From: an uncultured Chloroflexia bacterium
Lineage (GTDB): Bacteria; Chloroflexota; Anaerolineae; CG2-30-64-16
Length of the DNA: 64,000 nucleotides
Assembly (NCBI GenBank): GCA_963810095.1
Contig: CAWEMM010000009.1
Span: 32,001-96,000 of the forward strand
Direction: 5' to 3'
Position numbers and translations under genes: made by a program. Shown one piece after another: positions 3,090 through 49,278 of this stretch (position 1 is its first letter; each line of letters starts with the position of its first letter). The notes beneath the pieces are model-generated. The model saw nothing but the letters and a program-made list of their open reading frames with translations. It was not told the DNA's origin and ran no database searches.

Positions 3090-3586
3090 ATGCCACGTGT
3101 ATCCCTCAACCAATCCGCACCCGACTTCAGCCTGGCCGACTATCAGGGCAAGATCGTCGGTCTGGCCGACTTCCGTGGGGTGAAGAACGTCTTGCTCGTC
3201 TTCAACCGGACCTTTGCCTGACCGTTCTGCCCGCGCATATGGCGCAGTTGCGCCAAGATTACGCCCAGTTCGTCGCGCGTGACATCGAAGTGGTGGTGGT
3301 CGGGCCCGAGAACGCCCAGGCGTTCGCCGACTACTTTGCCAAGGAAGCGCTGCCGTTCGTCGGCCTGCCCGACCCGACGGCCAGCGTGCTGAAGCTCTAC
3401 GGGCAGGAGGTAAACCTGTTCAAGCTGGGGCGGATGCCCGCCCAGGTGCTGATCGACAAGGCCGGGGTGGCGCGCTACGTGCACTACGGACATGGCATGA
3501 GCGACATCCCCAAGAACGAGGAGTTGTTGGCCCTGGGTGATGAGATCAATGCCGCGTCTGATCCTGAACCAACACGGTCGCTCTGA
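3090..3586 (+). CDS. AhpC/TSA peroxiredoxin-like protein, probable selenoprotein (U-P-F-C), with a 1-base frameshift near 3231
   Basis: AGGAG then ATG 3090: MPRVSLNQSAPDFSLADYQGKIVGLADFRGVKNVLLVFNRTFA-TGA(3219)-PFC; continues in the shifted frame as AHMAQLRQDY...MPAQVLIDKAGVARYVHYG to the stop at 3586. Confidence 0.85.
3240..3255 (+). promoter_or_regulatory. Candidate bacterial SECIS hairpin
   Basis: TGGCGC-AGTT-GCGCCA perfect stem with a GU-containing loop, starting 18 nt after TGA 3219-3221. Confidence 0.6.
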
Positions 3587-8200: not shown

Positions 8201-8204
8201 GCGC

Positions 8205-22283: not shown

Positions 22284-23314
22284 TGATGGTCACATCAAAT
22301 GTCCGCGGGCCCTTGCCCGGCGACGATCTGATCGTCAGCGTGCGGGGCCTGAAGACCTATTATCCCGGCCCTCACAGGAACGGGTGGCCCTGGTCGGGAA
22401 GACTGCCGGTGAAAGCAGTCGACGACGTGAGCCTGGATATCCGCCGCGGCCGGACGCTCGGGCTCGTGGGCGAGTCGGGCTGCGGAAAAACGACGGTCGG
22501 ACGCTCGCTGCTCCAGCTGGTTCGGCCCACTGCAGGCGAGGTCTTCTTCGAGGGACAGGATCTGTGCAAGCTCAAGAACGAGGAGTTGCATCCCCTCCGC
22601 AAGCACATGCAGATTATCTTCCAGGACCCCTACGCGTCCCTCGACGCGCGCTGTACCATCGGCTTCACCATCAGCGAGGGGCTGCTGATCCATAAGTTGG
22701 TGACCCAAGCGGAGCTGCGGGACCGTGTGGCCGAGTTGATGGTGACAGTCGGGCTAAACCCTGCCTTCGAGAACCGCTACCCGCACGAGTTCAGCGGGGG
22801 CCAGCGCCAGAGGGTGGGGATTGCCCGGGCGCTTGCAACCGGCCCGACCTTCATCGTCGGCGATGAACCCATTTCCGCGCTCGACGTATCGATCCAGGCG
22901 CAGATCATTAACCTGCTGCGGACGCTGCGCGACCGGTTGAACCTGACCATGCTGTTCATCTCGCACGACCTGCGCGCGGTCCGCTACTTGAGCGACAACA
23001 TCGCGGTCATGTATCTGGGTAAGGTGGTTGAGCTGGCGGCCACCGATAGCCTGTTCGCGACCCCGCTCCATCCCTACACGCAGGCTCTACTGGGTTCCGT
23101 GCCGACGCCGAGTTGGAGCGGCTCTGAGGTTGAGGCCGTCTCGCTCTCGGGCGACGTGCCCAGCCCGATCAATCCGCCGCGCGGCTGCTATTTCTCGACG
23201 CGGTGCCCGCGCGTCATGCCCAAGTGCCGCGAAACCCAGCCGGCCCTGGTTGAGGCCCAGCCGGGCCACAAGGTTGCCTGCTTCCTCGTCAGCGACGCGG
23301 CGAGCCCGATATGA
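22283..23314 (+). CDS. ABC transporter ATP-binding protein (OppF type)
   Basis: [45 protein letters not shown]. Confidence 0.95.
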
Positions 23315-26148: not shown

Positions 26149-26149
26149 C

Positions 26150-29100
26150 ATGAACAGCGAGCAATTTCGTGACCCCGCGCAGGAGTACCGGGAGATTCCC
26201 TTCTGGTCGTGGAATGACCGGCTTGATGCGGGCGAGCTTCGCCGGCAGGTCAGGCTGATCAAGGAGGGCGGTTGGGGAGGCTTCTTCATGCATTCGCGTG
26301 CGGGCCTGCTCACGCCGTACATGGGCCCTGAATGGCTGGCCAGCGTTCGCATCGCCGTCGAAGAAGCCCGCTCGTGCGGGCTGCAGGCTTGGCTCTACGA
26401 CGAAGACAAGTGGCCCAGCGGCTATGCGGGCGGCGCGGGCATCGCCAGCAACCCCGAGCATCGCGCCAGGCAGCTGGTGTGCAAAGTCGACGCCCGTCCA
26501 AATCTGCTTGCCGAGCGTATCGCCACCTTTCGCGCCCGCGAAGTCGGCGGAATTCTGGTAGATATCTGCCCTGACCCTGCACCGCAGCTGACCCGGCCAG
26601 AGGACAGGCTCATCCAATTCTATCCCACTGCCATGGCGCTGGGGAACCAGATCTTCAATGACTATACCTACGTCGACCTGCTCAACGCCGGTGCGGTCGC
26701 TACTTTTCTCGATTCGACGCATGCGGTCTACGAAGCTGCAATAGGCGACGAGTTCGGGGGCGTGGTTCCGGGCGTCTTCACCGACGAGCCCTGCTTCCAG
26801 TTCCACCACTATACCTACGGTGAGTTCGGCTACCAGGCAGATGACCTGACCGTGCCCTGGACAGGCGACCTTCTCGAGTTCTTTTGTGCCGCAAACGGAT
26901 ACGACCTGCTGCCCCATTTGCCGTCGCTGTTCTTCGACACGGGTGACACCCACAAGGTCCGCTACGATTTCTACCGCACCGTCACCCGCATGTTCGTCGA
27001 GCGGTTCACCAAGCAGGTATACCGGTGGTGCGAGGCCCACGGCTTGCAATTCGCGGGCCATTTTATGGGCGAGGACACCCTGCTCTGGCAGATCCCGTGG
27101 GTCGGGGCTGTCATGCCCCACCTTGCCTCAATGCACATCCCCGGCGTCGACAAGCTCGGCCGCAGCGTCAACGACTTCGACGCCGGCATGGTGCTGACTG
27201 TCAAGCAGGTGGACAGCGTTGCGTGCCAGACGGGGAAACCGCGCACCCTCTGCGAAAATTACGGCTGTTCCGGCCAGGACTTCAGTCACGCCGGCCGCAA
27301 GTGGATCGGCGACTGGGCCTACGTCCTGGGCGCTAACCTGAACAACCCGCACATGGCCCTCTACAGCATGGCCGGCGAGCGTAAGCGGGATTGCCCGCCC
27401 AACCTCTTCTTTCAGCAACCCTGGTGGCCGGAAAACCGGTTGATTTCGGACTACTTCAGCCGGCTGAGCTACGCGCTCACTCAGGGCCAGCGCCAGGTCG
27501 ACATCCTGGTGATCCACCCCGTTGCAAGCGCGTGGGCCGTCTTCCGCCCCGGCGCTTCGGGCGAAGTGGTCCGGCTGGACCTCGGTCTGAACGACCTGCT
27601 GCTGTGCCTGATGCGATCCCAACGCGACTTCCACCTTGGAGACGAGATGCTGATGGAGCCCGGCGAGCCATGCGAAGCCCGAGTCCTGCTGGGCGCAGAG
27701 GGACCGCGACTTATGGTGGGCCAGGCTTCCTACCCGGTTGTGATCGTGCCTCCGGCGATCACCTTGTCCCGCAACACCGTGACATTGCTTCACGAGTTCG
27801 CGGCTGCCGGAGGCAGCGTGCTTGCCATCCAGCCCCTCCCGACTCGTATCGACGGCGAAGATTCCGGCCCGGTGCTGCCCGCCGGAACGCGCATCGTCTC
27901 CTGCGCGGCTGTGCCGGCTGCTCTGGACGATTGCCTCCCCTTCGACGTCAGAGTGGAGGGCCGTCCAACGATTTGGGCACATCACCGGAAATCAGGCAAA
28001 GCCGACGTCTATTTCCTCGCCAACATCGACCCCGACCAGGGGTGCGATGCGGCTGTCCAGGTGCGATCGAACGGCCGAGTGGAACGTTGGGATCCGACGA
28101 CCGGCGCCGTGACTGCGATGCTTGCGGATACGAAAGACGGGATCATGACGGTCGATCTCGCATTCCCGCCAGCGGGCTCGCACCTGATCGTCGTCCACCC
28201 CGGCGAACTTCCGCTAACCGACCGCATCCCACGACAACTGGAGGGCCATGCCATCGCGCTCGACGATGACTGGGTCATTTCGTCCTGCAGTCAGAACGCG
28301 CTTCTTCTTGACACGGCGAGCATCGAGATGGAGGGCATGACTCCGTCCGCACCGCTACCGGTGCTCGATGCGCACGGTGTGGCCTGCCGCGCGGGTCCGG
28401 GCGCCCATTTCCGCCTTCGGTTCCGGTTCAAAGTCGGCGAGCCGGTGCGAACGCCGCTTACGCTCGTCATGGAGCACCCCGAGCAATTCAGGACTTGGCT
28501 CAACGGGCGCGAAATCGAGTGGCCAACGGACGCATGCTGGTGGATCGACCCTGCGTTCCGGCAGACAGATATCACGGGGGCAGTGGTGACGGGCGCCAAC
28601 GAAGTCCTCGTCAGTGGCGTGATGACCCGTGCGACTGAGCTGGAGGCCATCTACATCACAGGGGCTTTCGGCGTCACGTCGCAGTGGATCTGCCGTGAAG
28701 ACGAGCTCGCGGGCCAGGCGTTCGACCGCTATGCCCCTGACTTCCGGCTTTGCACCTTACCGGCGACCGCCGGCCGCAGCGGGCCGTTCCACCCCCTGCG
28801 CTACGATCTGACGGCGGCCGGCTTTCCTTTCTTTGCCGGCCGTATCAAGCTGACGCGCCAGGTGGACCTTGCGATTGTTCCGCCTGGCCTGACCCTGGAG
28901 ATTCGTGGGCTACGGGCTGCGCTGGCAAACGTCAGCGTGAACGGCAAACTCGCCGGCACGTCGGCCTGGCCGCCGCATCGCGTCCCGATTGCGGCACTGG
29001 CACGGCCCGGGCGGAACGAGATCGAGCTCGAGCTCGTGGGGACGCTCCGGAACCTGCTCGGGCCGCACCATCTTGCCGGCGGGGATCCGAACCGGACGAA

Positions 29101-29188
29101 TCCCGAGCAGTTCCGGGACAAGACCCATTGGACGGCTGACTACCTGCTGACCCCCTTTGGGTTCGAGCAGGTCCGGCTGTGCTGGTAG
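26150..29188 (+). CDS. GH106-like glycoside hydrolase
   Basis: PFWSWN, GGFFMHSRAGL, AWLYDEDKWPSG, GVFTDEP, HIPGVD, GERKRDCPP. Confidence 0.85.
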   Translation: MNSEQFRDPAQEYREIPFWSWNDRLDAGELRRQVRLIKEGGWGGFFMHSRAGLLTPYMGPEWLASVRIAVEEARSCGLQAWLYDEDKWPSGYAGGAGIASNPEHRARQLVCKVDARPNLLAERIATFRAREVGGILVDICPDPAPQLTRPEDRLIQFYPTAMALGNQIFNDYTYVDLLNAGAVATFLDSTHAVYEAAIGDEFGGVVPGVFTDEPCFQFHHYTYGEFGYQADDLTVPWTGDLLEFFCAANGYDLLPHLPSLFFDTGDTHKVRYDFYRTVTRMFVERFTKQVYRWCEAHGLQFAGHFMGEDTLLWQIPWVGAVMPHLASMHIPGVDKLGRSVNDFDAGMVLTVKQVDSVACQTGKPRTLCENYGCSGQDFSHAGRKWIGDWAYVLGANLNNPHMALYSMAGERKRDCPPNLFFQQPWWPENRLISDYFSRLSYALTQGQRQVDILVIHPVASAWAVFRPGASGEVVRLDLGLNDLLLCLMRSQRDFHLGDEMLMEPGEPCEARVLLGAEGPRLMVGQASYPVVIVPPAITLSRNTVTLLHEFAAAGGSVLAIQPLPTRIDGEDSGPVLPAGTRIVSCAAVPAALDDCLPFDVRVEGRPTIWAHHRKSGKADVYFLANIDPDQGCDAAVQVRSNGRVERWDPTTGAVTAMLADTKDGIMTVDLAFPPAGSHLIVVHPGELPLTDRIPRQLEGHAIALDDDWVISSCSQNALLLDTASIEMEGMTPSAPLPVLDAHGVACRAGPGAHFRLRFRFKVGEPVRTPLTLVMEHPEQFRTWLNGREIEWPTDACWWIDPAFRQTDITGAVVTGANEVLVSGVMTRATELEAIYITGAFGVTSQWICREDELAGQAFDRYAPDFRLCTLPATAGRSGPFHPLRYDLTAAGFPFFAGRIKLTRQVDLAIVPPGLTLEIRGLRAALANVSVNGKLAGTSAWPPHRVPIAALARPGRNEIELELVGTLRNLLGPHHLAGGDPNRTNPEQFRDKTHWTADYLLTPFGFEQVRLCW

Positions 29189-29200
29189 CCGGAGGCGGCG

Positions 29201-31523
29201 ATGCGCTCACAGCTCGACAGCTACAACGTCACATGGGCGATCCCGGCGGAGACCGACCGTGGTTCGATGCCCCTCGGCAACGGCGAGGTCGGCATCAACC
29301 TGTGGGTGCTCGCTGGTGGAGCGATCGAATTCTACCTCGCGCGCACCGACGCACGAACCGAGCTAGACCGGAGCGTCAAGCTGGGCAAGGTACGCGTCAG
29401 CTTCGCCCCCGACGCCCGGCTCACTGGTTCCGCCTTTCGGCAGACCTTGATCCTGGCTGAAGGCTGCATTGAGATCCGGTATGGCGACGAGAGCGGAAGC
29501 ACAGGCGTCGTCCACGTCTTCGTGGATGCTGAACTCCCGACCGTCTACCTGGCCGGCCGCTTTACGCATCCGCTCACCGTGATGGCGGAGTACGAGAACT
29601 GGCGAACCGGGCCGCGGCTCCACCCGGCTTCTGGCGCCTGTGAGACTGCTGATACAGTAGAACGGCTGGAAGGAGCGATCCTTTTCTACCACCGCAACGG
29701 TCCCACCATCATCCCCTTTCTGACCAAGTTGGAAGCCGTGGAGTCCGTCGCGTCCGCTATTCCCGACTGCCTGTCGGACCGCGTCTTTGGCGGACTCGTG
29801 CAGCTGGAGGGCAGCAAGCTGAGCCCTGAGGGCGGGCTGGTCACGACGGCGCCCGTTCAAGCGTTCAACCTCCAGGTCACGACACATAGCGAACAGGTCC
29901 CCGAGCTTCAAGTTTGGAAAGCCCGCGTTTCAAAACTCGCGGCCGAGGCTGCACCGCCCCCTGAAGCAAAGGAACGTACCGCGCGCTGGTGGAACGCGTA
30001 CTGGGACCAAAGCTGGATTTTCGTCGAGGGCGACCGCCCTGCCCCGCCTGAGATTGAGGACGCCCTGTTTCAACTGCGCCTCGAACCAGAGGGCGAGCGG
30101 TACGCGCCGGCCCCACCCTCAGCCGTAACTCGCGCTTACGTCCTGACACGCTTCATGTTCGCCTGCATGAGCCGTGGCGCATTCCCTATCCTGTACAGCG
30201 GCGGGTTGTTCAACGCAATGCCCGGTGGCTCGGATCAGCTCGAAGTACTGACGTTCAGCCGGCCGTTCACCGCACAGCCAGATAGCCAGCCGAACCTGGT
30301 GTGCAATCCGGACGAGCGCGGGTGGGGTCACTTCTATCTCTGGCAGAACACCCGCTTGCCCTATCACTCAATGCTGGCGCGCGGAGAAGCGAGTTGGCTG
30401 CACCGGCTCTTCGCGTTCTATCGCCGCTTCTGGGACCTGGACCGCGGCCGGGCCGCGCTCTACTATGGGGCCGAGGGCCAGTACAATACGGAGATCGTGC
30501 ACTCGTTCGGGCTGCAGCCGGATTGGGTCTACGGCCTCGAGCGCCAGGGCAAACCGGACGGCTACTCGGAAAACCGGTGGGGTGGCGCAGTGGACATTTC
30601 ACCCGGCCTGGAACTGCTCCACCTGATGCTCGACTTCTATGATTACGAGCAGGATGACGGGTTCCTGTGCGACGAGTTGATCCCTTTTGCCCGAGACCTG
30701 TTGCATTTCATCGAGACCCGGTTCACCGAGCGTAAGGCTGGCAAGCTGATGCTTCACCCCATCCAGTCCGTGGAAACGTACTGGGACACGACCGACGCGC
30801 TTCCGGTACTGGCAGGCATGACGGCGGTCGTGCGCCGAATTCTCGCATTGGCAGGCGAAAAGCTGGTCGACCGCGAGTTCTACTGCCGGATAGCGGAGAT
30901 GATCCCGGACCTACCGGTTGGGGATGCGGGCGGCGTCGACGTCCTGGCGCCCGCTCATGTATACGATTCGCAGCGTAAGAACTGCGAGGCGCCCGAGTTC
31001 TACGCCATTTTCCCTTTCCGACTCTTCGGTCCGGGCATGACGCTCGCCATCGACACCTATCGCCACGCGGCCACGATCGCGGGTAGCTTCAGGCCCTTCA
31101 CCCTCGGCCGCAGCCCTGAATACCCTAGCTATTCCGGCTGGCAGCAGCACGGGATGGTAGCCGCGCTGCTTGGACTTACCGATGACGTGCGCATCATCCT
31201 GGAGAACAACTGCGCGCTCGAGGAACCCGGGCTACCGTTTCCCAGCCATGTGGGGCCCCATCTACGACGCCGTCCCCGACATCGACCACGGGGCAAACGT
31301 CCTGACAACCTTGCAGCTAATGGCCTTTCAGGTGAATGGGGACGAGATTCGCATGCTGCCCGCCTGGCCGAAGGACTGGGACGTCTCCTTTAAGCTGCAC
31401 GCGCCCCGCGACACGACGGTCGAGTGCGTGTACCGGCGTGGCAAGATTGAGAAGCTGGCGGTAACGCCGGCGAGCCGGCGAAGTGACGTGCGCTGCCCGG
31501 CCTGGTGCCAGGTGGCAGAATAG
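29201..31523 (+). CDS. DUF5703 / GH95-like glycoside hydrolase (1-base frameshift near 31220)
   Basis: SMPLGNGEVGINLW, WQNTRLPY, QSVETYW, NCEAPEFYAIFPF; continues in the shifted frame as RFPAMWGP...PDIDHG...LPAWPKDWDVSFKLHAP. Confidence 0.85.
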
Positions 31524-31535
31524 GCGAGCAGGACT

Positions 31536-32672
31536 ATGAGCAGCGAGAGTATGACGCCGAGAGAGCGCTGGCTGGCCGTGTTGGCGCGGCAGAAGCCCGA
31601 CCGCGTGCCGATGGACTACTGGGCGACGCCGGAATTCAGCGCGAAGTTGATCCGTCATCTTGGTTTCAGCCGGCGGGGAGAGCAGGCGTTGATCGGGATG
31701 CTGAGCCGCGGCGAACGGATGGCGGGCCGCCTGAACGAGGGCCGGCTCGCCCTTCGGCGGGCCCTGCAATGCCTGAAAGTGGACTTCGTCGTGCAAGCCG
31801 CGCCGCGCTACGTTGGCCCAAGGCTGCCCGCCGATACGGACGTCTTCGGGTGCACGTACCGTGAAGTCGAGTATGGCACGGGAACGTATTCTGAAGTAGT
31901 CGCGCATCCGCTTGCACCGTACGGCTCGGTGGAGCAGATTGCCGCGAACTACCGCTGGCCCTCGCCAGATTGGTATGACTACCGAGGAATTCGGAACCAG
32001 ATCGCGGGCTGGGAGGACTACCCGGTTCAGGGCGGCGGCTCGGAACCGTTCCTGATTTATAAGGACCTGCGTGGGCAGGAGCAAGCGATGATCGACCTGG
32101 TAGAACACCCCGAGATCGTCCATTACTGCCTGGACAAGCTGTTCGACCTGGCCTATGTGAACACCGAACGGATCCTGGAGACGATACCGGGTAAAGTAAC
32201 GTATTGCTACGTGGCAGAAGACATGGGCGGGCAAAGCAACTTGATGTTTTCAAAGAAGCACATCCGCACGTTCCTCCTCCCGCGCATGAAGCGCATGATC
32301 GACCTCGCACACGACGGCGGCGCTTACGTCTTCCACCACAACGACGGCAACTGCCGGGCGATCCTCCCCGATCTGGTCGATGCCGGGATAGACGTTCTGA
32401 ACCCGATACAATGGCGATGCCAGGGGATGGACCGCGCGACACTAAAGGCTGATTTCGGCTCCAAGCTCGTCTTTCACGGTGCAGTGGACAATCAGCAGAC
32501 CCTGCCGTTTGGCACAGCGGAACAGGTGCGCCAGGAAGTGGCGGACAATTTGCGGGTCCTGGGCAGTGGCGGCGGCTATATTCTCGCGCCGTGTCACAAC
32601 ATCCAGCCGGTGACCCCGCCCGAGAATGTTGTCGCGATGTACGAAGCGGGGTACGAGCTTGGCTGGATGTGA
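31536..32672 (+). CDS. Uroporphyrinogen decarboxylase-like (URO-D/CIMS, MtaA/CmuA-like) protein
   Basis: MTPRERWLA..PDRVP, EDMGGQ, HHNDG, LNPIQ, GAVDNQ, ILAPCHNIQ. Confidence 0.9.
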   Translation: MSSESMTPRERWLAVLARQKPDRVPMDYWATPEFSAKLIRHLGFSRRGEQALIGMLSRGERMAGRLNEGRLALRRALQCLKVDFVVQAAPRYVGPRLPADTDVFGCTYREVEYGTGTYSEVVAHPLAPYGSVEQIAANYRWPSPDWYDYRGIRNQIAGWEDYPVQGGGSEPFLIYKDLRGQEQAMIDLVEHPEIVHYCLDKLFDLAYVNTERILETIPGKVTYCYVAEDMGGQSNLMFSKKHIRTFLLPRMKRMIDLAHDGGAYVFHHNDGNCRAILPDLVDAGIDVLNPIQWRCQGMDRATLKADFGSKLVFHGAVDNQQTLPFGTAEQVRQEVADNLRVLGSGGGYILAPCHNIQPVTPPENVVAMYEAGYELGWM

Positions 32673-32683
32673 GAAGGATAGAG

Positions 32684-34921
32684 ATGCACGACTACAACCT
32701 GAGATGGCATGAGCAGAGCCGCCATTCCGGCGAGTCCATGCCGTTGGGCGGTCATAGCATCGGCTGTAACGTGTGGGCCGAGAACAGCGAGCTCTTGCTG
32801 TACTTCCAGCAATCCGGCTGCTTTGACGAGAACGGTTCCATGCTCAAGGGCGGCCGGCTCCGCATTGCGTTCGACTCCAACCCTTTTGCCGGCGGCTTCC
32901 TGCAGGAGCTCATTCTCCAGGACGGTCACATCCGCATCGAGGGTCGAAGCGACCGGGGAAACATTAGCATCGTACTCTGGGTTGACGTGCGGTTGCCCGT
33001 GGTCCATATCGACCTGTCTGCCGAGTACGCTCTATCCATGCGGGTGCAGTATGAGACTTGGCGTGACGAGGACCGGCGTGTCGACAATCACTCCTACGAG
33101 CTGTTCCAGTGCAAAGAGGTCTGGGGCGATCCGGACAAGCCGGTGATCTTCCACAGGGACCAGATCGAGGTGATCGGACCGGGCGAGCTCCTCTTTTATC
33201 ACCGGAACCTGGATGACGACCTGTCGTTCGACCGGGAGATGGACACCCAGGGTCTCGGAGAACATAAGGCAAGCCTGTACAATCCGCAACGGGGCTTGAC
33301 CACAGGTGGCTTGCTGAAGGCGCCCGAAATGTACTTCGCAGGCATGGTGCGGGGCACATCCGTCGATACGCGTTATCTTGCGTATGCCTTCGAATCGGTC
33401 TCGCCGTCAGCCGAGCAGAGCATCGCGATCTATCTGCTCGCCGAGCAGGCCAGCACGCTCGAGGAATGGCGTGAGCACCTGAACTCGATTGTGGCAAGCA
33501 GTGACGCGACGAGCCAGACGGCTTTCGAGGACTCGCGCGCCTGGTGGCGGGAGTATTGGGAGCGCAGCTTCATCCGCATCAGGCCTGACGAGGCGCAAGC
33601 AGACGACCGGCTCTGGCAAATTGGCCGAAACTACCAGCTGTTTCGCTACCTGATGGGCTGCAACGACGCTGCCATCTGGCCGACCAAGTTCAATGGCGGC
33701 TTGTTCACGTTTGATCCCATCCTCGCGGGTAAGAGCCCGTGGTCGGACATCGAGCTACACTACACCCCGGACTACCGCCTCTGGGGCGGTGGCTCACACA
33801 CGGCCCAGAACCAGCGTCTGCTCTACTGGCCGATGCTCAAGAGCGGGGATTTTGCCCCCATGCGCCAGCTTTTCGACTTCTACAATCGGACGCTCAAGAC
33901 TGCGCAAACGCGCGCCAGGGTATTCTTCGGGGTGGACGGCGCGATCTATCCCGAACAGATCGGCATCTACGGCCTATGTCCGACCTGCGACCACGGCTGG
34001 GGCAACGAAACCGGCCTGCCCGTCGCGCAGATCCGCTATCACTTCTCGACCGCGCTCGAAATCAGCCTGATGATCCTGGACTACGCCGACTACACGGGAG
34101 AGGACGTTGCGGAGTACGTGGAATTCATGGACAGCGTCGTGAAGTTCTACGATGGGTTCTACCCTCGTGACGACGATCGGGGCCAGATGGTGATCGAGCC
34201 GGGCAACGCACTCGAAACGTACCATCCCGTCCGGAATCCCGTCGACGCCGTGGCCGGCCTCGAGTGCGTACTGCGCCGCCTGCTCCTGCTGTCCTCAGAG
34301 GCTATCTCGCCAGAGCGGAGGCAGAACTGGCAGCGTATAATGCGACGCGTTCCGACCCTCTCGTTCCGTGAGAAAGACGGGCGCAAGATCATCGCGTATG
34401 CCGAAACCTCGTCACCGCTGCACAACTGCGAGGTCCCCGAGTTGTACACGGTCTTTCCATTCGGCCAGTTCGGGCTCGGGAAGCCTGACCTACAGGTAGC
34501 CAGGGACACAGCGCGCTTTGCACCGGAGACGGGCGAGCAGCTCACCCATATCAGTTGGCACCAGCAAGGCATCCAATACGCCCGCCTCGGGATGCTTCCC
34601 GAGGCCATGGAGTTCCTATTCCGCAAGCTCGGCGACGCCGAGCAGCGGACTCCCGCGTTCTGGGGGCCGGGCCATGACTGGACGCCGGATCACAACTGGG
34701 GCGGCTCGGGCATGATCCAGCTTCAGGACATGCTGCTGCAGGCCGAGGGGGACAAGATCTATTTGTTCCCATGTTGGGATAAGAGGATCGACGTGTGGTT
34801 CCGGCTCCGGGCCCCAGGGAATACCATCGTCGAGTGCCGGCTGAAGGGAGGCGCCGTCGCGCAGTTGACGGTGACGCCTCGGGAACGACTGTCGGATGTG
34901 GATATCCTGCCGGAGCAATAG
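32684..34921 (+). CDS. DUF5703 / GH95-like glycoside hydrolase
   Basis: SMPLGGHSIGCNVW, PTKFNGGLFT, PDYRLWGGG, QNQRLLYWP, FWGPGHDWTPDHNWGG. Confidence 0.88.
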   Translation: MHDYNLRWHEQSRHSGESMPLGGHSIGCNVWAENSELLLYFQQSGCFDENGSMLKGGRLRIAFDSNPFAGGFLQELILQDGHIRIEGRSDRGNISIVLWVDVRLPVVHIDLSAEYALSMRVQYETWRDEDRRVDNHSYELFQCKEVWGDPDKPVIFHRDQIEVIGPGELLFYHRNLDDDLSFDREMDTQGLGEHKASLYNPQRGLTTGGLLKAPEMYFAGMVRGTSVDTRYLAYAFESVSPSAEQSIAIYLLAEQASTLEEWREHLNSIVASSDATSQTAFEDSRAWWREYWERSFIRIRPDEAQADDRLWQIGRNYQLFRYLMGCNDAAIWPTKFNGGLFTFDPILAGKSPWSDIELHYTPDYRLWGGGSHTAQNQRLLYWPMLKSGDFAPMRQLFDFYNRTLKTAQTRARVFFGVDGAIYPEQIGIYGLCPTCDHGWGNETGLPVAQIRYHFSTALEISLMILDYADYTGEDVAEYVEFMDSVVKFYDGFYPRDDDRGQMVIEPGNALETYHPVRNPVDAVAGLECVLRRLLLLSSEAISPERRQNWQRIMRRVPTLSFREKDGRKIIAYAETSSPLHNCEVPELYTVFPFGQFGLGKPDLQVARDTARFAPETGEQLTHISWHQQGIQYARLGMLPEAMEFLFRKLGDAEQRTPAFWGPGHDWTPDHNWGGSGMIQLQDMLLQAEGDKIYLFPCWDKRIDVWFRLRAPGNTIVECRLKGGAVAQLTVTPRERLSDVDILPEQ

Positions 34922-35180: not shown

Positions 35181-35390
35181 CGATCTCCTCCACCTGCTCG
35201 CTCCGCTGTCCGTCCGTCGCAAGGTCAGTTAGTGCGGTGATTACGTGTCCGCTATAATAGCGGAACAATCCCCCTGGAAATCCGTCCGGGTCCCGCGCTT
35301 GTCCACGGGTGCATCCGCTGCAACGGCAACGATGGTGCGCGTATGGCGGCGTCTGGAAAAGGTTCGACCGCTGTGCAAGGAGGTGGGCGA

Positions 35391-36065
35391 ATGGAGCCAT
35401 TGAAACCAGCTTCCTGGGAAGAGTTTCTGCGCAAGACCACCGTCGTGATTGGGCGACTGGGCTTGGCTTTGCTTTTCCTCTCGTCGTTATCCTGGAAGAT
35501 GCCTCCGCGCTACGGCTGCGGGCCCGGCCCGGGGTTCGCGTTCACCACGGCTGCGGCGGATGGCACCCTGATCCGGACGAGTGGCTTGTGCGACTGGATC
35601 GGTATCGAATCTGTCTACGCACAGCGCCCCCGCAAGTTCACTGCATCCTCTGATCAAGGCGGCGACGGCCTCCTCGCTGCGCCGGTTGGCCTGCTCCTCA
35701 GGCTGAACGGGGCGTTCGTGGACGGCATCGTCAAGCCCAACTTCAGTTGGTTCGGCTCGGTGATCTTCCTGGCCGAAGCTTGGATCGCCCTGAGCCTGGG
35801 CTTGGGCTTGTTCACGCGGCTGGGCGCGTTGGTGGCGCTCGGCATGTCCGCCCAACTGGCCCTGGGGATCGGCGGCGTCTCAGATCCGGCCACTCAACTT
35901 CAAGAATGGGTTTGGAGTTATCTCCTGATGGCGCTGCTGGCGCTTGTGCTCCTGGGCGCAGCGCCGGGCCGCGCGCTGGGGGTCGATGCCTGGCTGCGCC
36001 CCAGGCTCGCGGCAGCCCAGGAACGCGGGAGCCGGTTGGCCAGGGTACTGCTGGCACTCACATGA
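35391..36065 (+). CDS. DoxD/TQO small subunit-like (DoxX superfamily) membrane protein
   Basis: AGGAGG RBS; TATAAT at 35253; RLGLALLF..WKMPP, AEAWIALSLGLGLFTRLGA, EWVWSY, GRALGVDAWL; two Cys in the extracytoplasmic loop. Confidence 0.8.
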   Translation: MEPLKPASWEEFLRKTTVVIGRLGLALLFLSSLSWKMPPRYGCGPGPGFAFTTAAADGTLIRTSGLCDWIGIESVYAQRPRKFTASSDQGGDGLLAAPVGLLLRLNGAFVDGIVKPNFSWFGSVIFLAEAWIALSLGLGLFTRLGALVALGMSAQLALGIGGVSDPATQLQEWVWSYLLMALLALVLLGAAPGRALGVDAWLRPRLAAAQERGSRLARVLLALT

Positions 36066-36150: not shown

Positions 36151-36986
36151 ATGGGGTTGCCAGATGTCGGAGGGGCGCCGAACGACCAGAGCAGCAGTGC
36201 CGCGGCCTTTCCCTGGAAGCTGTGGCTCTACACGAACTACGACTGTAACCTGAGCTGCAGCTATTGTCTCTCCGAGTCGAGCCCGCGTGCCGCTCGCCGC
36301 GGGCTGGATCTGGCGACGGTGCGGCAGGCCATGGACGAGGCCGTCGCGCTGGGGTTCGAACACGTCTTCCTGACGGGCGGCGAGCCGTTTCTTCTGGACG
36401 ACGTCTATGCGATGTTGGCCTATGCGTCGGCCCACTTGCCGACAACCGTCCTGACCAACGGCTGCTCTCTTGCGGGGCAGGCGGCTGGCGCGGCTCTGCG
36501 CGATTGCCAATCCCAACCTGACGATCCAGGTGAGCCTGGACGGCGCGCGACCCGAACACCACGACCCCTATGCGCGGGCCGGGAGCTTGGGCCGCAGCGG
36601 TTGAGGGCATCCAACTGCTTCGTGAGCACGGCTTTCACGTCCGCATCGGTACCACGGAGACGCCCGTCAACGCCGCGCACCTCGACGAGCTGGCAGCGTT
36701 CCTCTCCTCCCTCGGCATCGCCGAAGAAGATCATATCAGCCGGCCGGTGGCACGTCGCGGCTTCGCCGCGTCAGGGCTGGAAGTCGGCATCGATACCCTG
36801 ACACCCGAGCTAACCCTGACCGCGGTGGGGGTTTTCTGGCATCCCCTGGCTTCGCCCTCCAGTGCGGACATGCTGATCTGCCCGCAGATCTTTCCCCTCG
36901 CAAGGGCGGTCGCACGCGTCCGGCAGGAACTCCTGACACTGGCTCAAGCTGGCAAGGATCAGCTGAAGACCGTCACCTGAGGCTAA
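36151..36986 (+). CDS. Radical SAM protein (Rv1681/MoeX-like), probable penultimate selenocysteine; two 1-base frameshifts (~36465, ~36570)
   Basis: LWLYTNYDCNLSCSYC (CxxxCxxC), FLTGGEPFL, VLTNG; across the shifts IQVSLDG..PEHHD..RGPGAW, PELTLTAVGVFWHP; ends KTVT-TGA-GGC-TAA. Confidence 0.85.
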
Positions 36987-36991
36987 CGCAC

Positions 36992-37008
36992 GGCTTCCGG
37001 TGGAAGCC
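36992..37008 (+). promoter_or_regulatory. Candidate bacterial SECIS hairpin
   Basis: GGCTTCC-GGT-GGAAGCC perfect 7-bp stem beginning 11 nt after TGA 36978-36980; GU in the loop; no U-tract. Confidence 0.6.
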
Positions 37009-37103
37009 AGGGTGAGCAGCGGGAGCAACGGGCCGTGGGACGCACGATCCTGCTTGGGTTTCCGGTGGGCGTAGCGTCGTGTGGAAGCGGGTGCTGTGCA
37101 AAC

Positions 37104-37778
37104 ATGAGTGGCGCGCTCCTGGTGATGGCCAAGCGGCCGGCGGCCGGTACGACGAAGACGCGGCTGACCCCCGCGCTCTCGGCAGAACAGGCCGCGGCGC
37201 TTTACGAGTGCTTTCTGCGGGATGTTCTCGACATTGCACGTGCCGTACCCGCCGTGACGCGTACCATCGCCTATCCGCCTGCCGACGGGCAGCACTACTT
37301 CCGGCAACTGGCCGCTGATTTCGAGCTGGCGCCGCAGGTCGGCGCAACGTTAGGGCAGCGCCTGGCTCATGTCCTGGGCGAGAGCCTCGGCCGCGGCCGG
37401 ACGCCGGCCGTCGCGCTGAGCAGCGATAGCCCGACCCTGCCGGTCGAACACGTGCGACGGGCCTTCACCTGGCTGGCCGAGGGCGATGTAGACGTGGTGC
37501 TCGGCCCGTGCGCAGACGGTGGGTACTATCTGATTGGCGTGACCGTCCCCCGACCGCACCTGCTGCTCGCCGTGGAGATGTCAACCCCGCGAGTCCTGGC
37601 CGACACACTGGCCCTGGCTGCCGAGGGTGGGCTGAAAGTGGGGTTGTTGCCGGCCTGGTACGATGTGGATACGGTTGCAGACCTCGCATGCCTGCGAGCG
37701 GACCTGGCCGCGCTGCCCCCTGCCGTCGCCCGGCACACCCGCAGTCTGCTGGCAGCCGACCCGACGCTTCCCCGGTGA
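37104..37778 (+). CDS. TIGR04282/DUF2064-type transferase (rSAM/selenodomain-associated)
   Basis: LLVMAKRPAAGTTKTRL, QVGATLGQRL, SDSPTLP, VVLGPCADGGYYLIG, WYDVDTVADL. Confidence 0.9.
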   Translation: MSGALLVMAKRPAAGTTKTRLTPALSAEQAAALYECFLRDVLDIARAVPAVTRTIAYPPADGQHYFRQLAADFELAPQVGATLGQRLAHVLGESLGRGRTPAVALSSDSPTLPVEHVRRAFTWLAEGDVDVVLGPCADGGYYLIGVTVPRPHLLLAVEMSTPRVLADTLALAAEGGLKVGLLPAWYDVDTVADLACLRADLAALPPAVARHTRSLLAADPTLPR

Positions 37779-37782
37779 TGAG

Positions 37783-38466
37783 ATGCAAATTGCCGTGATT
37801 ATCCCCGCCCTGAACGAAGCCGGCAACATCGCTGACCTGGTGCGGGAGACTCTCGCTCAGGGGGTGGTTGACGTAATCGTCGCCGACAATGGTTCGACGG
37901 ATGGCACTGCCCCGGCCGCGCAGAAGGCGGGCGCGCGGGTGGTCACCGAGCCCCGTCGCGGCTACGGGTATGCCTGTGCCGCTGGAGCCGCCGCAACGAC
38001 TGCCGACGTGTTGGTCTTTCTCGACGGCGACTACAGCTCCCTGCCGGCTGAACTAGACCGGCTGTTAGCGCCCCTGCGCGACGGTGAGGCGGACCTGGTG
38101 TTGGGCTCCCGAACCTTGGGCCAAATCGCGCCTGGCGCCATGCCGTCGCACCAACGCTTCGGCAACTGGCTGATGGCGCGCGCCATGCGCTGGCTTTATG
38201 GCGTGCCCGTGACCGATCTGGGACCTTATCGGGCCATTACGTGGGCGCTGCTGACCGGATTGGACATGCGTGAAATGACTTTCGGTTGGCCGGTCGAGAT
38301 GATGGTCAAGGCGGCTCGCCACCATGCGCGGATCGTCGAGGTGCCGGTCAGCCACGCGCCGCGGCGTTCCGGCCGGTCCAAGGTCGGTGGCAGCGTGCGC
38401 GGCTCCGTTCTTGCCGCCTACTACATTGTGACAGTCATCCTGCGTTACGCGTTTACCCGCCCCTGA
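37783..38466 (+). CDS. Glycosyltransferase family 2 (DPM-synthase-like)
   Basis: VIIPALNE, DNGSTDGT, RGYGYAC, FLDGDYS, TDLGPYRAI, GWPVEM, SKVGGS. Confidence 0.92.
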   Translation: MQIAVIIPALNEAGNIADLVRETLAQGVVDVIVADNGSTDGTAPAAQKAGARVVTEPRRGYGYACAAGAAATTADVLVFLDGDYSSLPAELDRLLAPLRDGEADLVLGSRTLGQIAPGAMPSHQRFGNWLMARAMRWLYGVPVTDLGPYRAITWALLTGLDMREMTFGWPVEMMVKAARHHARIVEVPVSHAPRRSGRSKVGGSVRGSVLAAYYIVTVILRYAFTRP

Positions 38467-39792: not shown

Positions 39793-42283
39793 ATGTCTGA
39801 CAACCAGCCAACCCAGGCCCCCGGCCACCCCGGCATCGAGGCCCGCTGGACCTCCAGTGCCAAGACGGGCGTTGGCACCGCGCTGGGCAACGCATCTCGC
39901 ATCTGGTTCACGCTCGGCCACGGCATCATCGACGAGGTCTATTACAGCCGCATCGACTGGGCCTGCACGCGCGACATGGGGCTGCTCGTTTCGGACGGCC
40001 AAGGCTGGGTGTCCGAAGAGAAGCGGCACGCGAAGCACGAGGTCGCGTACCCCTACGCCGGCATCCCCTATTACCGGCTCACCAATACCGACCAGGGTGG
40101 CCGCTACCGGATCGAGAAGGAGATCCTGGCCGATCCGCAGCGCGACGTGATCCTGCAGCGCACGCGCTTCGTGCCGCTGCAGGGCAAGCTCGAGGACTAC
40201 CACCTGTACTTGATCCTTGCCCCGCACCTGGGCAACCAGGGCGCCGGCAACACGGCCTGGACTGGCGACACGAAGGGCGAGCAAATGCTGTTTGCAGAGC
40301 GTGACGGCACCTCGCTTGCGCTCGCCTCCTCCGCCCCCTGGCTGAGGCGCTCGGCCGGTTTCGTCGGCACGTCGGACGGATGGCAGGACATCACACAGCA
40401 CGGCGAGATGAAGTGGGAGTACGCCCGGGCCGACGACGGCAACGTTGCACTCACCGGCGAAATCGACCTCGGGGCCTGCGCCCTGGCCGGCAGCGGGGAG
40501 ACGGGTGGAGGGGTGGAGTTCACCCTTGCGCTCGGCCTGAGCCGCACCGCGCTTGAGGCCGGTCACCACGCGCGCACCGCGCTCTTCGACGGCTTTGACC
40601 GCGCTCGCGATGTCTATGTCGGGCAGTGGCAGCGCTGGCAGGACGGCCTGCTTGCGCTGGAGGACGAGGAAGTCAGAGACGCTACCTCGGGACACGCGCA
40701 GCCCGAGCTTCCTCCAATCGACGAGTTCCGCACCAGCGCGATGGTGCTGCGCGTGCACGAGGACAAGGTCTTTGCGGGCGGCATGATCGCCAGCCTTTCG
40801 ATCCCGTGGGGGTACGCGAAGGGCGACGACGACCTCGGCGGCTACCACCTGGTGTGGACGCGCGACCTGGTGGAGAGCGTCGGCGGGTTGATTGCCGCGG
40901 GCGCGCATGGCGATGCCGCACGTGTGCTGCGCTACCTGCAGGCCACGCAGGAGGCGGACGGCCACTGGCCGCAGAACATGTGGCTCGACGGCACACCCTA
41001 CTGGCATGGCATCCAGATGGACGAGACCGCGTTCCCCATCCTGCTGACGGAGACTGCCTACCGCCTGGGCGTGCTGGACGAGGCGCTGCTCGACAGCTTC
41101 TGGCCGATGGTGCACACGGCCGCGGCGTACGTCGCAGCGAACGGGCCGGTCAGCAAGGAGGACCGCTGGGAGGAGAACGCCGGCTACTCGCCCTTCACGC
41201 TGGCCGTCGAGATCGCGGGCCTGTTGGCTGCCGCCTCACTGGCCGAGACGACCGGTAAGTCGACCGCCGCGCAGTACCTGCGGGAGACGGCGGACAACTG
41301 GAATGCCAACATCGAGCGCTGGACCTACGTGACGGGGACCGCACTGGCGGAGAAGCACGGGGTGGAGGGATATTACGTCCGCATCGCGCCGCCGGATGTG
41401 GGCGAAGGGGCGTCGCTGAAGGACGGTTACGTGCCGATCAAGAACCGGCCGCCGGGGGAGAGCAAGGTGCGGGCCGTGCAGATCGTTAGCCCCGACGCGC
41501 TTGCACTCGTGCGCTTCGGCCTGCGCCGCGCCCGACGACCCGCGCATTCTGAACACGGTCAAGTTGATCGACGCGACGCTCAAGACCGACACGCCGTTCG
41601 GGCCGGTATGGCACCGGTACACAGGCGATGGCTACGGCGACCACGGGGACGGCGGGCCGTTCGACGGCACGGGTGTGGGCCGAGGCTGGCCGCTGCTGGT
41701 GGGCGAGCGCGCGCACTATGAGCTGGCAGCCGGGCGCTTCGACGAGGCGGAGCGGCTGATGCGCGTGATGGAAGCGCTGGCGAACGAGGGCGGCATGATC
41801 CCCGAGCAGACCTGGGACGCGGCCGACATCCCCGAGGAAGAGCTGTTCTTCGGCAAGCCGGCGGGAAGCGCTATGCCGCTCGTGTGGGCGCACGCCGAGT
41901 ACCTCAAGCTGCGGCGTTCGCTCCGCGAGCGTCGAGTCATCGACATGCCGCCCCAGCCCGCCAACCGCTACCTCACCGGCGACGACCGGCATACGGGCAC
42001 GCCCTTCACCCTCTGGCGCTTCAACCATCGCTCGCGCGTCCTTCAGCAGGGCAACCTCCTGCGGGTCGAGACACGGTCGCCCGCGCTGGTTCACTGGAGC
42101 GTGGATGGCTGGCAGAACGTGCAGGAGTGCGCGACGACGGACACGCAAGTGGGGATGCACGTGGCGGACCTGCCGACGCAGGAGCTTGAAGAGGGGGCGC
42201 AGGTGACTTTTACCTTCCGCTGGCCGGCCGAAGGCGACCGGTGGGAGGGGACGAACTATGAGGTGCGGGTCGTTAAGGCCTGA
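39793..42283 (+). CDS. Glucan 1,4-alpha-glucosidase/glucoamylase (GH15) (1-base frameshift near 41527)
   Basis: WTSSAKTGVG, GGYHLVWTRD, QMDETAFP, DRWEENAGYS; after the shift RYTGDGYG, GRGWPLLVGER, MIPEQ, SAMPLVWAHAEY. Confidence 0.92.
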
Positions 42284-47079: not shown

Positions 47080-48829
47080 CTAGATCAATTCCCGCACCTT
47101 GTCCGACAGCGCGGTCAGCGCGATCTTGCCTCGGTTCGGCTCACCCTTCATCAGTGACTCCGCGAAATGGAGCGCCTGCTCCCGCGTCACCTTGGGCGGC
47201 ATGGGCGGCTCGAACGGGTCTACCACGGCCTCGACCACGACTGGCCCGGGGGTGTTCAGGGACTCGGCCATCTGGTCGCCGCACTTCGCCGGATCCTCAA
47301 TGGTGAACCCGGTCCCGCCGCACGCCCGCGCAAACGCCGCAAAATCGATCGGTGTGAGCGAGACGCCGTACTCCGGGTTGCCCAGGAAGACCATCTGCTC
47401 CCACTTAATCTGTCCGAGTGTGTTGTTCTTGATGATTACGATCTTGACCGGCAGGTTGTACTTCACAGCGGTGGCGAAGTCGGCCATGAGCATCGAGAAG
47501 CCGCCGTCGCCTACCAGGGCAACCACCTGCCGGTTCGGGTAGGCGACCTGCGCGCCGATCGCGTAGGGCAGGCCGTTCGCCATCGTCGCCAGGTTGCCCG
47601 AGAGGGAGAACATCTGCCCGCGGCGCATGTCGATGTAGCGGGCGGCCCAGGTCGCAATGGTGCCGCTGTCCGCGAAGACAATCGCATCGTCGCGCAGCCG
47701 CACGCCCAATTCGTGCGCCACGACCTGCGGCTTCATCGGCATGTCCTGCCGCGTTGCGCTGCGCCATCATCGTCTGCCGCCAGTCCTGCATGCCGGCCTG
47801 CGCCTTTTCGAGGAACTTGCGCTCCTCGTGCCGGGTCAGCATGGGCAGCAGTGCGTCGAGCGTGCACGCCGTGTCGCCCACCAGCCCGACTTCGATGGGG
47901 TAGCGCAGGCCGATGCGCGCCGGGTCCACGTCGATCTGGACCGCCCGGGCCGCGCCGGGTTTCGGATAGAACTCGATGTAGGGGAAAGATGTGCCCGCGA
48001 TCAGGAGCGTGTCGCACCCTTCCAGCGCGTCCTGCGACGGCTCGGTGCCGAGCAGGCCAATCCCCCCGGTGGTGTATGGGCTGTCGTCGGGTACGCACGC
48101 CTTGCCCAGCAGCGGCTTGATGATCGGCGCGCCCAGCAGTTCCGCGGCCTTCTCAAGCTGGTCGCCGGCGCCCAGCGCGCCCCGCCCGGCCAGGATCGCG
48201 ACTTTCTTGCCCCCGTTCAGAATTTCTGCTGCCTTGCGCAAGTCGTCCTCGCGCGGCAGCGCGGCGCTCACCGCCCACACGTCAGACGCATGGCCCGGGA
48301 CGTTGCGCGGGGTGTGCTCGCCGATCTCTTCGTCCTGCGTGTCCGACGGGATCGTGATATGGCTCACCCCCCGGTGCTTCAACGCCAGGCGGATCGCCAG
48401 GTCGGTGCTCGGCTGCACGTGGCCCGGGCTCATGATGCGCTGGCTGTACACCGCCACGTCCATGAACACCTTGTCGAGCTCGACGTCTTGCTGCTGCCGC
48501 GTATTGATCAGGTCGTGGTACGCCAGCCCGGTGATGGCGAGCACGGGCTGCCCGTCCAGCTTCGCGTCGTACAGCCCGTTCAGCAAGTGGATGCCGCCCG
48601 GTCCGGAGGTGGCGAGGCACACGCCCAGCTTGCCGGTCACCTTGGCATAGGCACAGGCCATGAACGCGGCGGCTTCCTCGTGGCGGACGTGGACGAACCG
48701 CACGTCGTCCTGGCGCTTGCGCAAGGCCTCCATGATGCCGTTGATCCCGTCGCCCGGCAGCCCAAACACCACGTCCACGCCCCAGTCTTGTAGCGTGTCG
48801 ATCAAAGCATCTGCTGCAGTCTTTGTCAT
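47080..48829 (-). CDS. poxB: Pyruvate oxidase/dehydrogenase (ThDP-dependent) (1-base frameshift near 47758)
   Basis: VFGLPGDGING, VRHEEAAAFMA, TSGPGGIHLLNGLYDA; SGNLATMA, GDGGFSM...NN ThDP motif. Confidence 0.88.
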
Positions 48830-49278
48830 CGTCCGCTCCTTCAAGACACTTTGCGCATTTTCGAAGCGCGTTCTTGATCTTGTGTCGATCATAGTCCCGC
48901 GCGACGTCGATCTTCCGGAGCATGGCTTCCCAAGGCAGCCGGAGCTGCATTAATACTCGATTAGAAGTTGTGATAAGACAGCTTGCGTTGCGCGGACGTG
49001 GCCGGCCGGCAGCGTCGCCGGCGATAGGAGAGAGTGTGAAGCATGTGGACGATCACTCGCACACAGAGCCGCCGCGCTTCTAGCAATACCCGTACTGGTC
49101 TTTGACGCGAAGCACCAGGGGCGCGTGAGGCTGTAGTGGTACGGGTTCCTGTGTGCCGAGGCGCTTCTGGGCAGTTGCCGTGTTTGCATCGGCGCCCCTG
49201 GCTCAGCTTGTGACACGATCGGGGGACAATGCGTCTCTTCCGGGCTCCTGCTCCTTTGCCGGCAACGTCCGCACGCGC

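Follow-up and report, generated by a model that had tools for sequence, protein, structure and literature searches.

Where does the radical S-adenosylmethionine (radical SAM) gene of an uncultured Chloroflexia bacterium end? The gene lies in a stretch of 64,000 nucleotides (nt) (positions 32,001 to 96,000 of contig CAWEMM010000009.1, assembly GCA_963810095.1), which we refer to as a whole as the window, and its frame runs into a TGA codon that is followed by a single glycine codon, a TAA stop codon, and a hairpin. The protein may stop at the TGA, or the TGA may encode selenocysteine (Sec), in which case the protein would end in Sec-Gly. We favor the second answer and give it a probability of about 85%: the gene would end in Sec-Gly by means of the UGA and a hairpin in the 3′ untranslated region (3′ UTR), and the penultimate Cys of a group that is sister to the Rv1681 (MoeX) family would here be replaced by Sec. 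The TGA-GGC-TAA ending and the hairpin gain their significance only through comparison with relatives and not from the window alone.

Results

An in-frame TGA occupies the position of a conserved penultimate Cys

An initial annotation of the window had described a radical SAM frame that closes with ACC-GTC-ACC-TGA-GGC-TAA, a perfect 7-base-pair (bp) hairpin with a GGU loop that starts 11 nt past the TGA and has no U-tract, and suspected breaks in the frame near 36465 and 36570. Direct reading reproduced the ending to the base. The hairpin is also exactly as described: the arms (36992–36998 and 37002–37008) flank a loop at 36999–37001, seven of seven positions pair, there is no run of T, and the intervening 11 nt are 36981–36991. 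Both breaks are real, as seen in the translations, which fall in three frames, and in tblastn searches with intact relatives; we return to them below. All features are collected in Table 1.

A phmmer search with the C-terminal piece of the protein against 1.84 billion representative sequences returned 203 relatives at E ≤ 0.001. When the tails of the best 150 of these 203 were sorted by simple patterns, 44 ended in [F/Y/W]-x-Cys with one or two further residues, 38 conformed to a pattern that stops exactly one residue earlier (P0029 and P0111 proved false by eye), one ended in FRWG, and 67 were fragments or garbled. To read the gene ends at the level of DNA, we searched GTDB species genomes with an 11-sequence alignment, which gave 257 confirmed relatives, and retrieved DNA for the best 80, which yielded 79 loci. 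The genome of the window itself is absent from this set, in which the best match is 63% identical and comes from a Caldilineaceae metagenome-assembled genome (MAG). Apart from one locus that runs off its contig (L023), 78 of the 79 could be read to the stop. Fifty-three of these end in F-x-C-A/S-stop and one more, L062, ends in FPCSWN; we refer to these 54 loci as Cys-type. The other 24, which we refer to as Sec-type, are without the Cys and have the tail [F/I/V][T/Q/R/K]-TGA, with the TGA at the Cys position in 24 of 24. What follows the TGA is Gly-stop in 21 loci, Ala-stop in two, and Gly-Lys-stop in one, and the Cys-type residue that matches this codon is Ala or Ser.

The initial annotation had suggested, pending an alignment, that Rv1681/MoeX-like homologues end with a penultimate Cys, and this holds for 53 of the 54 Cys-type loci, with L062 as the exception. 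It had also named free exchange of the TGA for TAA or TAG among relatives as an observation that would speak against Sec. We found instead that TGA is present in every one of the 24 Cys-less relatives, while the stop codons of the Cys-type loci are mixed (TGA 36, TAG 14, and TAA 3; n = 53), with random sequence past them and long read-through. At the Cys-type rate of TGA, the chance of 24 of 24 is 0.68^24, or ~1e-4. The passages of the preprint by Haft and Gwadz that deal with new selenoprotein families (10.1101/2022.07.06.499078) call for ten or more candidates, every one (100%) with TGA at the site; measured against those passages, the 24 loci and the window all have TGA, and TAA or TAG occurs in none. 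We conclude from the alignment that the window site is a predicted Cys/Sec pair, in which the in-frame UGA aligns with the conserved Cys of homologues.

All of the 23 Sec-type loci that carry a taxonomic label are from Chloroflexota (Caldilineae, Anaerolineae, Ardenticatenia, Dehalococcoidia, and Tepidiformales), and the unlabeled one, L016, falls inside the same clade. We built a maximum-likelihood tree from 76 rows with the last residues removed, after dropping L023, L031, and L039 (missing parts or a frame break). One clade of this tree, from Chloroflexota, holds 23 Sec rows and two nested Cys rows (the Dehalococcoidia L026 and L041), and the other holds 51 Cys rows from Actinomycetota, one acidobacterium, and one member of Dormiibacterota. 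On the tree as estimated, at least two changes between Sec and Cys are needed. More distant relatives (P0049, P0080, P0089, P0091, P0095, P0124, P0132, P0138, and others) have tails that read NIR, SIR, GIR, NIQ, or GYR at the same alignment column; judged from protein records alone, these may be further Sec-type clades.

A conserved and covarying hairpin follows the UGA

We next aligned the window with the 24 Sec-type loci over a region that begins 6 nt before the TGA and extends 44 nt past it (alignment A3). The hairpin is in register in every row, and 89.9% of the cells form standard pairs, compared to 40–62% when the partners are slid by one to three columns. Both sides have changed in five of the seven pairs, and the observed covariation score was reached by 0 of 500 shuffles. 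C-C-G is invariant at the top of the 5′ arm and the start of the loop, and RNAalifold predicts the same helix on A3 unaided. The hairpin that the initial annotation wished to see checked in relatives is therefore conserved with compensatory changes.

Section 5 of PMC13188914 gives a consensus for the bacterial Sec insertion sequence (SECIS) as a stem of 4–16 bp, a loop of 3–9 nt with G in the first two loop positions, a UGA-to-loop distance of 16–37 nt, and a minimum free energy of −7.5 kcal/mol or lower. The window element lies within all four constraints as stated in that section (stem 7, loop GGU, spacing 18, and −10.0 kcal/mol). By the same section, loop size, position of the G, and spacing (16–21 nt) are in range for 25 of 25 elements, and 17 of 25 satisfy all four constraints. 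Under a stricter definition of a hairpin (at least six pairs), we found one in 17 of the 24 Sec-type loci, all with a loop that starts with G or CG, versus nine of 52 Cys-type loci, of which two are G-first. We conclude that this conserved covarying hairpin is a putative bacterial SECIS that fits the consensus.

With a single codon after the UGA, the SECIS would lie wholly in the 3′ UTR. The minimal element of Escherichia coli fdhF has a spacing of 11 nt. Relative to the fdhF SECIS and the bacterial consensus, the window element is within all constraints but sits in the 3′ UTR and is without an Rfam match; the typical position of a bacterial SECIS, in the passages available from PMC13188914, is the coding region. 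In the mechanism that we propose, the ribosome would arrive at the UGA (36978–36980), and the Sec-specific elongation factor SelB, loaded with Sec-tRNA(Sec), would recognize the G-first apical loop of the hairpin 11 nt downstream. Insertion of Sec would be followed by one Gly and by termination at the UAA. It is presumably SelB that performs the recoding in the window organism.

Competing explanations for the TGA and the frame breaks

Several observations weigh against a Sec-Gly terminus. Our sample of the best 80 of 257 relatives favors Chloroflexota and Actinomycetota. In an AlphaFold2 model of L002, an intact Sec-type protein, the tail past the last helix has a predicted local distance difference test score (pLDDT) of ~67–69. 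The fold of 36970–37040 (71 nt) has z = −0.74, and 41 of 200 shuffles fold equally well. Rfam gave no hairpin match over the whole window at the gathering threshold and, with E up to 10 on 36900–37110, just a plant microRNA and a long noncoding RNA, both at chance level. Folded as an uninterrupted core helix alone, eight of the 25 elements fall short in stem length or miss the −7.5 kcal/mol limit. The mean fold energy downstream does not separate the two types (Sec-type −14.4 versus Cys-type −14.3 kcal/mol), so we dropped energy alone as evidence. Finally, the 25 matches of a covariance model of A3 are its own training elements, which match by construction. In favor of specificity, the model matched nothing else in 896 kb; its next best match had E = 0.06, and it had no match at any Cys-type gene end.

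A hairpin that is not significant alone and has no Rfam match could simply be untranslated together with GGC-TAA, as a U-less terminator or a stem that stabilizes the messenger RNA, and the TGA would then be an ordinary stop at which the last two residues have been lost. TGA is the commonest ordinary stop in the window (22 of 38 Pfam-supported open reading frames (ORFs)), where there is no global TGA recoding, and public annotation agrees in that the best 120 closest clusters all end before the TGA. However, an ordinary stop leaves three things unexplained: TGA in 24 of 24 Cys-less relatives exactly where the Cys is lost, the immediate Gly or Ala and stop in 23 of 24, and the hairpin with its invariant C-C-G apex 16–21 nt from the TGA in Cys-less loci only. 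In addition, the next gene follows ~120 nt on in the same strand, and a terminator is therefore not expected. We consider termination at the TGA to be very improbable.

A second set of objections concerns the window copy of the gene, which spans three frames (frame 1 at 36151–36462, frame 2 to ~36567, and frame 3 to 36980). The two net +1 shifts are uncompensated and the gene is not one open frame; if both shifts are real, this copy is dead. The family could then be a genuine selenoprotein family of which the window holds a pseudogene, so that the enzyme is no longer made. Two uncompensated breaks inside 110 nt are in keeping with such decay, and the window's other candidate selenoprotein gene is frameshifted too, a pattern expected from loss of the Sec trait. 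The breaks are not confined to Sec genes, though, and this indicates assembly error. Because the GC3 frame plot (GC content at third codon positions) was too noisy for frameshift counts, we used split Pfam domains instead and found three further window genes that are divided between frames: a histidine kinase (HisKA and HATPase_c), a GH15 glycosidase, and a thiamine pyrophosphate (TPP) enzyme. There are thus at least six frame breaks in 64 kb, including two in the radical SAM gene and one in the redox gene at 3090. As a side observation, the assembly seems to hold roughly one indel per 10 kb. By tblastn, the pieces of the window protein are 94%, 100%, and 85% identical, in order, to P0203 (275 aa), a close public relative that is intact, so that identity past the breaks is still 85–100%, and the TGA-GGC-TAA and the perfect hairpin are intact as well. 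P0203 begins with the same residues, for which reason we set the start at ATG 36151. We infer that the two +1 frameshifts are assembly errors and not gene death, and we think it quite unlikely that the window copy is a pseudogene.

The last objection is that tRNA-Sec, selA, selB, and selD were not found in the 64-kb window, in which ARAGORN found no tRNA at all; ARAGORN likewise found no tRNA-Sec in the 24 Sec-type loci. The evidence that the window organism decodes Sec is indirect. The initial annotation had pointed to a second UGA-plus-hairpin gene at 3219 as support for the use of Sec, and this TGA is real: it is in frame with ATG 3090 in a protein of the AhpC/TSA fold with the motif U-P-F-C. 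With the TGA as U, residues 1–47 of this protein align to positions 2–41 of the AhpC/TSA profile and the remainder to positions 43–123, with one base missing just after the Cys codon (near 3230–3232). The best NCBIfam match is "SelL-related redox protein". Its hairpin (3240–3255) has the loop AGUU, a UGA-to-loop distance of 24 nt, and z = −2.1. Among the 120 closest public clusters, 119 are without the part before the TGA, and the sole full-length protein has W there.

Public proteins with W at the equivalent TGA, P0015 (FRWG) for the radical SAM gene and P0294 (TFTWPFC) for the redox gene, raise the alternative that the UGA is read by other means (near-cognate Trp or Cys, or reassignment of the stop) and that the hairpin merely stimulates read-through. 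The identity of the inserted residue is indeed not decidable from sequence alone. The simplest account of these W residues is gene calling with a translation table in which TGA is Trp. Furthermore, TGA serves as an ordinary stop in the window, Cys is the counterpart at this site, as is usual for Sec, the hairpin conforms to the SelB-type consensus, and the known Sec families HdrA2 and AhpC/TSA-type UxxC have an in-frame TGA in the same lineage. We find reading of the UGA by means other than Sec insertion hardly credible.

One such HdrA2 gene, at L010 2995–5445 (+) in an Anaerolineae MAG, scores 1133.5 bits (cutoff 1100) when read through an in-frame TGA at 3589–3591. It lies directly upstream of the Sec-type radical SAM gene, so that two selenoprotein genes appear side by side.

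The Sec-type proteins are a sister group of the Rv1681 family

All three pieces of the window protein best match NF049973, "Rv1681 family radical SAM protein", at profile positions 70–154, 155–198, and 184–314 of 326, with 113.4, 29.6, and 122.3 bits. The N-terminal piece has the cluster motif CNLSCSYC (CX3CX2C) and a Pfam Radical_SAM match. With TGA as U, Sec-type relatives match NF049973 from position 70–72 to position 325 of 326, and the N-terminal region (positions 1–69) is absent from them. Intact Sec-type proteins score 299.2, 303.3, and 305.8 bits, below the cutoff of 380, while the Cys-type L021 and L076 score 536.9 and 478.5 bits, respectively. Because the Sec-type proteins are shorter and score below the cutoff, we place them in a sister group of the Rv1681 (MoeX) family and not among its members by the curated rule. 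The Rv1681/MoeX-like identity proposed in the initial annotation thus stands insofar as this is the best-matching family for all pieces, but it does not extend to membership at the curated cutoff. The name MoeX lends no support to a role in molybdopterin synthesis, and GTP 3′,8-cyclase (MoaA, TIGR02666) was rejected as an identity for the protein (40–68 bits versus a cutoff of 284; template modeling (TM) score of 0.53 to 1tv7_A). We likewise rejected membership in TrsS (NF045646; 26 bits versus a cutoff of 490) and in ArsS (TIGR04167; 24.5 bits for the N-terminal window piece and 42–51 bits for intact relatives versus a cutoff of 300), the match in both cases being to the radical SAM core only.

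The Cys-type proteins have an N-terminal extension of ~70 residues that is absent from the Sec-type proteins (L076 5377–5660 and L021 5428–5680; also P0014, P0022, and P0028). This extension is TusA-like, with a likeness that is below the Pfam threshold (13.7–26.1 bits versus 28.6). Separately, in L002 a YeeE/YedE-type sulfur transporter fused to a TusA domain (7160–8377, +) lies two genes downstream of the Sec-type gene.

We counted neighbors near the radical SAM gene with small hidden Markov models (HMMs) in the 24 Sec-type and 54 Cys-type loci. The commonest neighbor is a DoxD-like gene (16/24 Sec-type and 45/54 Cys-type), and DUF2064 (9/24 and 17/54) and family-2 glycosyltransferase (GT2) genes (7/24 and 12/54) are also shared. 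A tblastn search with the window DUF2064 protein found no neighbors at E = 1e-8, but the small HMMs did find DUF2064 neighbors. The types differ in an Rv1679-like dehydrogenase (1/24 versus 44/54), an Rv1680-like binding protein (0/24 versus 53/54), and the Rv1678 C-domain (0/24 versus 34/54). Relative to NF049973 Rv1681 (MoeX), the Sec-type proteins therefore share the CX3CX2C core, the C-terminal domain, the penultimate Cys or Sec, and the DoxD-like, DUF2064, and GT2 neighbors, but they are without positions 1–69 and the Rv1680-like gene, and the Rv1679-like gene is nearly always missing. In the window, NCBIfam and Pfam scans found no Rv1678/Rv1679/Rv1680 operon but only the DoxD-like gene, upstream of the radical SAM gene. 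The DUF2064 gene downstream (probable start ATG 37104) is in an ORF that is open from GTG 37035, and the GT2 protein scores 58 bits on TIGR04283 versus a cutoff of 182.

Two side observations concern the surroundings of these genes. One Pseudarthrobacter chromosome has two Cys-type loci, L021 and L022, at ~1.43 Mb and ~3.66 Mb; their radical SAM proteins are identical, and of this pair L022 alone has the GT2 and DUF2064 genes downstream. In the window, the region upstream of the DoxD-like gene (23311–34921, +) is a sugar-utilization block (alpha-L-rhamnosidase, a GH106-like protein, two DUF5703 proteins, and a URO-D-like gene) with no evident link to the radical SAM cluster.

Table 1. Coordinates of the radical SAM gene, its predicted Sec codon and hairpin, and other window genes discussed in the text.
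Feature	Position	Strand	Details
Radical SAM gene, short Chloroflexota sister group of the Rv1681 family	36151..36986	+	Predicted tail K-T-V-T-Sec-Gly-stop
First frame break, frame 1 to frame 2	36460..36464	+	Net +1 nt versus intact relatives; tblastn of L002 protein and P0203; translations
Second frame break, frame 2 to frame 3	36564..36570	+	Net +1 nt; within conserved H-D-P-Y-R-G, between its Tyr and Arg codons
TGA, predicted to be read as Sec	36978..36980	+	Aligned with the conserved penultimate Cys of the Rv1681 family
GGC (Gly), then TAA, predicted true stop	36981..36986	+	GGC 36981-36983, TAA 36984-36986; direct reading and 24 Sec-type loci
Candidate bacterial SECIS-type hairpin, 3′ UTR	36992..37008	+	7-bp stem, GGU loop, UGA-to-loop 18 nt
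DoxD-like membrane protein, upstream	35343..36065	+	Pfam DoxD, 26 bits
DUF2064 protein, TIGR04282 family, downstream	37104..37778	+	168 bits versus cutoff 134; Pfam DUF2064
Family-2 glycosyltransferase	37663..38466	+	Pfam Glycos_transf_2, 85 bits; true start probably near 37780
Second candidate selenoprotein gene, AhpC/TSA-fold redox protein	3090..3586	+	TGA 3219-3221 in T-F-A-U-P-F-C
Hybrid histidine kinase, split	11531-14383 and 13899-15443	+	Pfam domains; HisKA in the first part, HATPase_c in the second
GH15 glucoamylase-like gene, split	39793-41721 and 41501-42283	+	Pfam domains
TPP-dependent enzyme, split	47083-47742 and 47408-48892	-	Pfam domains

The tail residue may be catalytic

The AlphaFold2 model of L002, computed from a 52-sequence alignment, has a pLDDT of 89.9 and a predicted TM score of 0.87, and its last helix spans residues 254–270. 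The nearest solved folds have TM scores of 0.53–0.62 and are SuiB, SkfB, BlsE, anSME, DesII, EpeE, viperin, and MoaA. When the PDB was searched by sequence, the radical SAM core alone had matches and the C-terminal domain matched nothing. In the alignment, the tail Cys or Sec is the sole conserved Cys-type residue outside the CX3CX2C motif, and a set of ligands for an auxiliary cluster is therefore unlikely. The Sec, on a presumably flexible tail past the last helix, would most plausibly be catalytic, as a hydrogen-atom donor, a redox residue, or a soft ligand of the substrate at the radical SAM active site. The initial annotation had proposed a C-terminal selenol arm that would reach the active site.

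Known proteins offer partial parallels. The epimerase EpeE (YydG), a radical SAM enzyme with a catalytic Cys, is a structural neighbor (8ai2_B, TM score 0.62), and PDB titles name a C223A mutant of it. The Cys of EpeE is a hydrogen-atom donor. EpeE differs in that identity is ~16–18%, it has auxiliary-cluster Cys residues that the Rv1681-type family lacks, and its Cys is not C-terminal. Mammalian thioredoxin reductase ends in Gly-Cys-Sec-Gly on a flexible tail, and the initial annotation had drawn on this likeness. The comparison stands for a penultimate Sec followed by Gly and fails for the adjoining Cys, since the tail reads x-T-U-G and not G-C-U-G; fold and chemistry are also unrelated to those of a radical SAM protein. 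With no Cys beside the Sec (T-U-G), a selenenylsulfide within the tail is impossible. We therefore rejected a Cys-Sec pair of the thioredoxin reductase type: the U is preceded by T, Q, R, or K in 24 of 24 loci and by T in the window.

SaoC, KCU-star, and UXX-star have Sec zero to three residues from the stop and a SECIS after the coding region, as here, but they are unrelated small proteins, not radical SAM enzymes, with motifs CU or UXX and not x-T-U-G. The SaoC example in the passages of Haft and Gwadz available to us (10.1101/2022.07.06.499078) has a perfect 7-bp stem and a GGU loop after the UGA. Given this precedent for a C-terminal Sec with the SECIS after the stop, the radical SAM case would join a known kind.

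Like the group described here, ArsS is a radical SAM protein with alternation of Cys and Sec near the C-terminus, but its Sec is internal and its C-terminal domain, which we take to be of the DUF3641 type, is different. The protein encoded directly downstream of the window gene belongs to TIGR04282, a family for which ArsS is the named partner. A table in PMC13188914, in the portion available, lists ArsS as a selenoprotein with the motif GxxU. We put forward, as a doubtful possibility, that the Sec-type genes may form a second and independent radical SAM system that bears Sec, has a TIGR04282-type partner, and runs parallel to the arsenosugar pathway of ArsS. In such a system, the Sec of the mobile tail would hold or reduce a soft S, Se, or As center, or would donate the final hydrogen atom; the DoxD-like protein would provide the connection with the quinone pool, and processing of an adenosylated or glycosylated product would fall to the DUF2064 and GT2 proteins.

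Discussion

We asked where this gene ends, and comparison with relatives argues that it ends one residue past a Sec codon. The initial annotation had expected that so short an extension would be missed, and it is: the deposited L002 protein has 280 aa and stops at the TGA, and a record of 263 aa from an Oscillochloris isolate has the tail MTFT. By protein records alone, the best 120 public clusters nearest to L002 all end at the TGA position, under the names "radical SAM protein", "MoaA/NifB/PqqE/SkfB family radical SAM enzyme", and "sulfatase maturation enzyme AslB". In total, 4404 public clusters match L002 at E ≤ 1e-20, a count that includes Cys-type and possibly other radical SAM proteins. 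PGAP cannot predict a C-terminal Sec, according to the passages of Haft and Gwadz at hand (10.1101/2022.07.06.499078).

Among the passages of PMC13188914 returned by a term search, the radical SAM selenoprotein entries are TIGR04167 and NF045646 only; the available passages of the Haft and Gwadz preprint (10.1101/2022.07.06.499078) add the CUAEP-tail family to such entries. PMC13188914 mentions neither "Rv1681" nor "MoeX". We found no description of the Sec-type radical SAM group as selenoproteins in the literature searched, the family list of BSepDB being outside the search. By titles and the openings of abstracts, several papers on Rv1681 concern tuberculosis biomarkers or diagnostics and none concerns enzymology.

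If the parallel to ArsS were true, the penultimate Cys that is invariant in actinobacterial Rv1681 proteins would be their key catalytic residue, and UGA-GGN-stop with a 17-nt hairpin would be a natural minimal 3′-UTR SECIS cassette. Independently of that parallel, if the gene ends in Sec-Gly, a radical SAM group that is common in Chloroflexota joins the bacterial selenoproteins and provides a clean natural example of a bacterial SECIS that is wholly in the 3′ UTR. There would also be a systematic gap in annotation, as an extension of two residues leaves the truncation invisible. Finally, the substitution pattern would single out the penultimate Cys or Sec as functionally critical in an uncharacterized family that includes a conserved actinobacterial operon.

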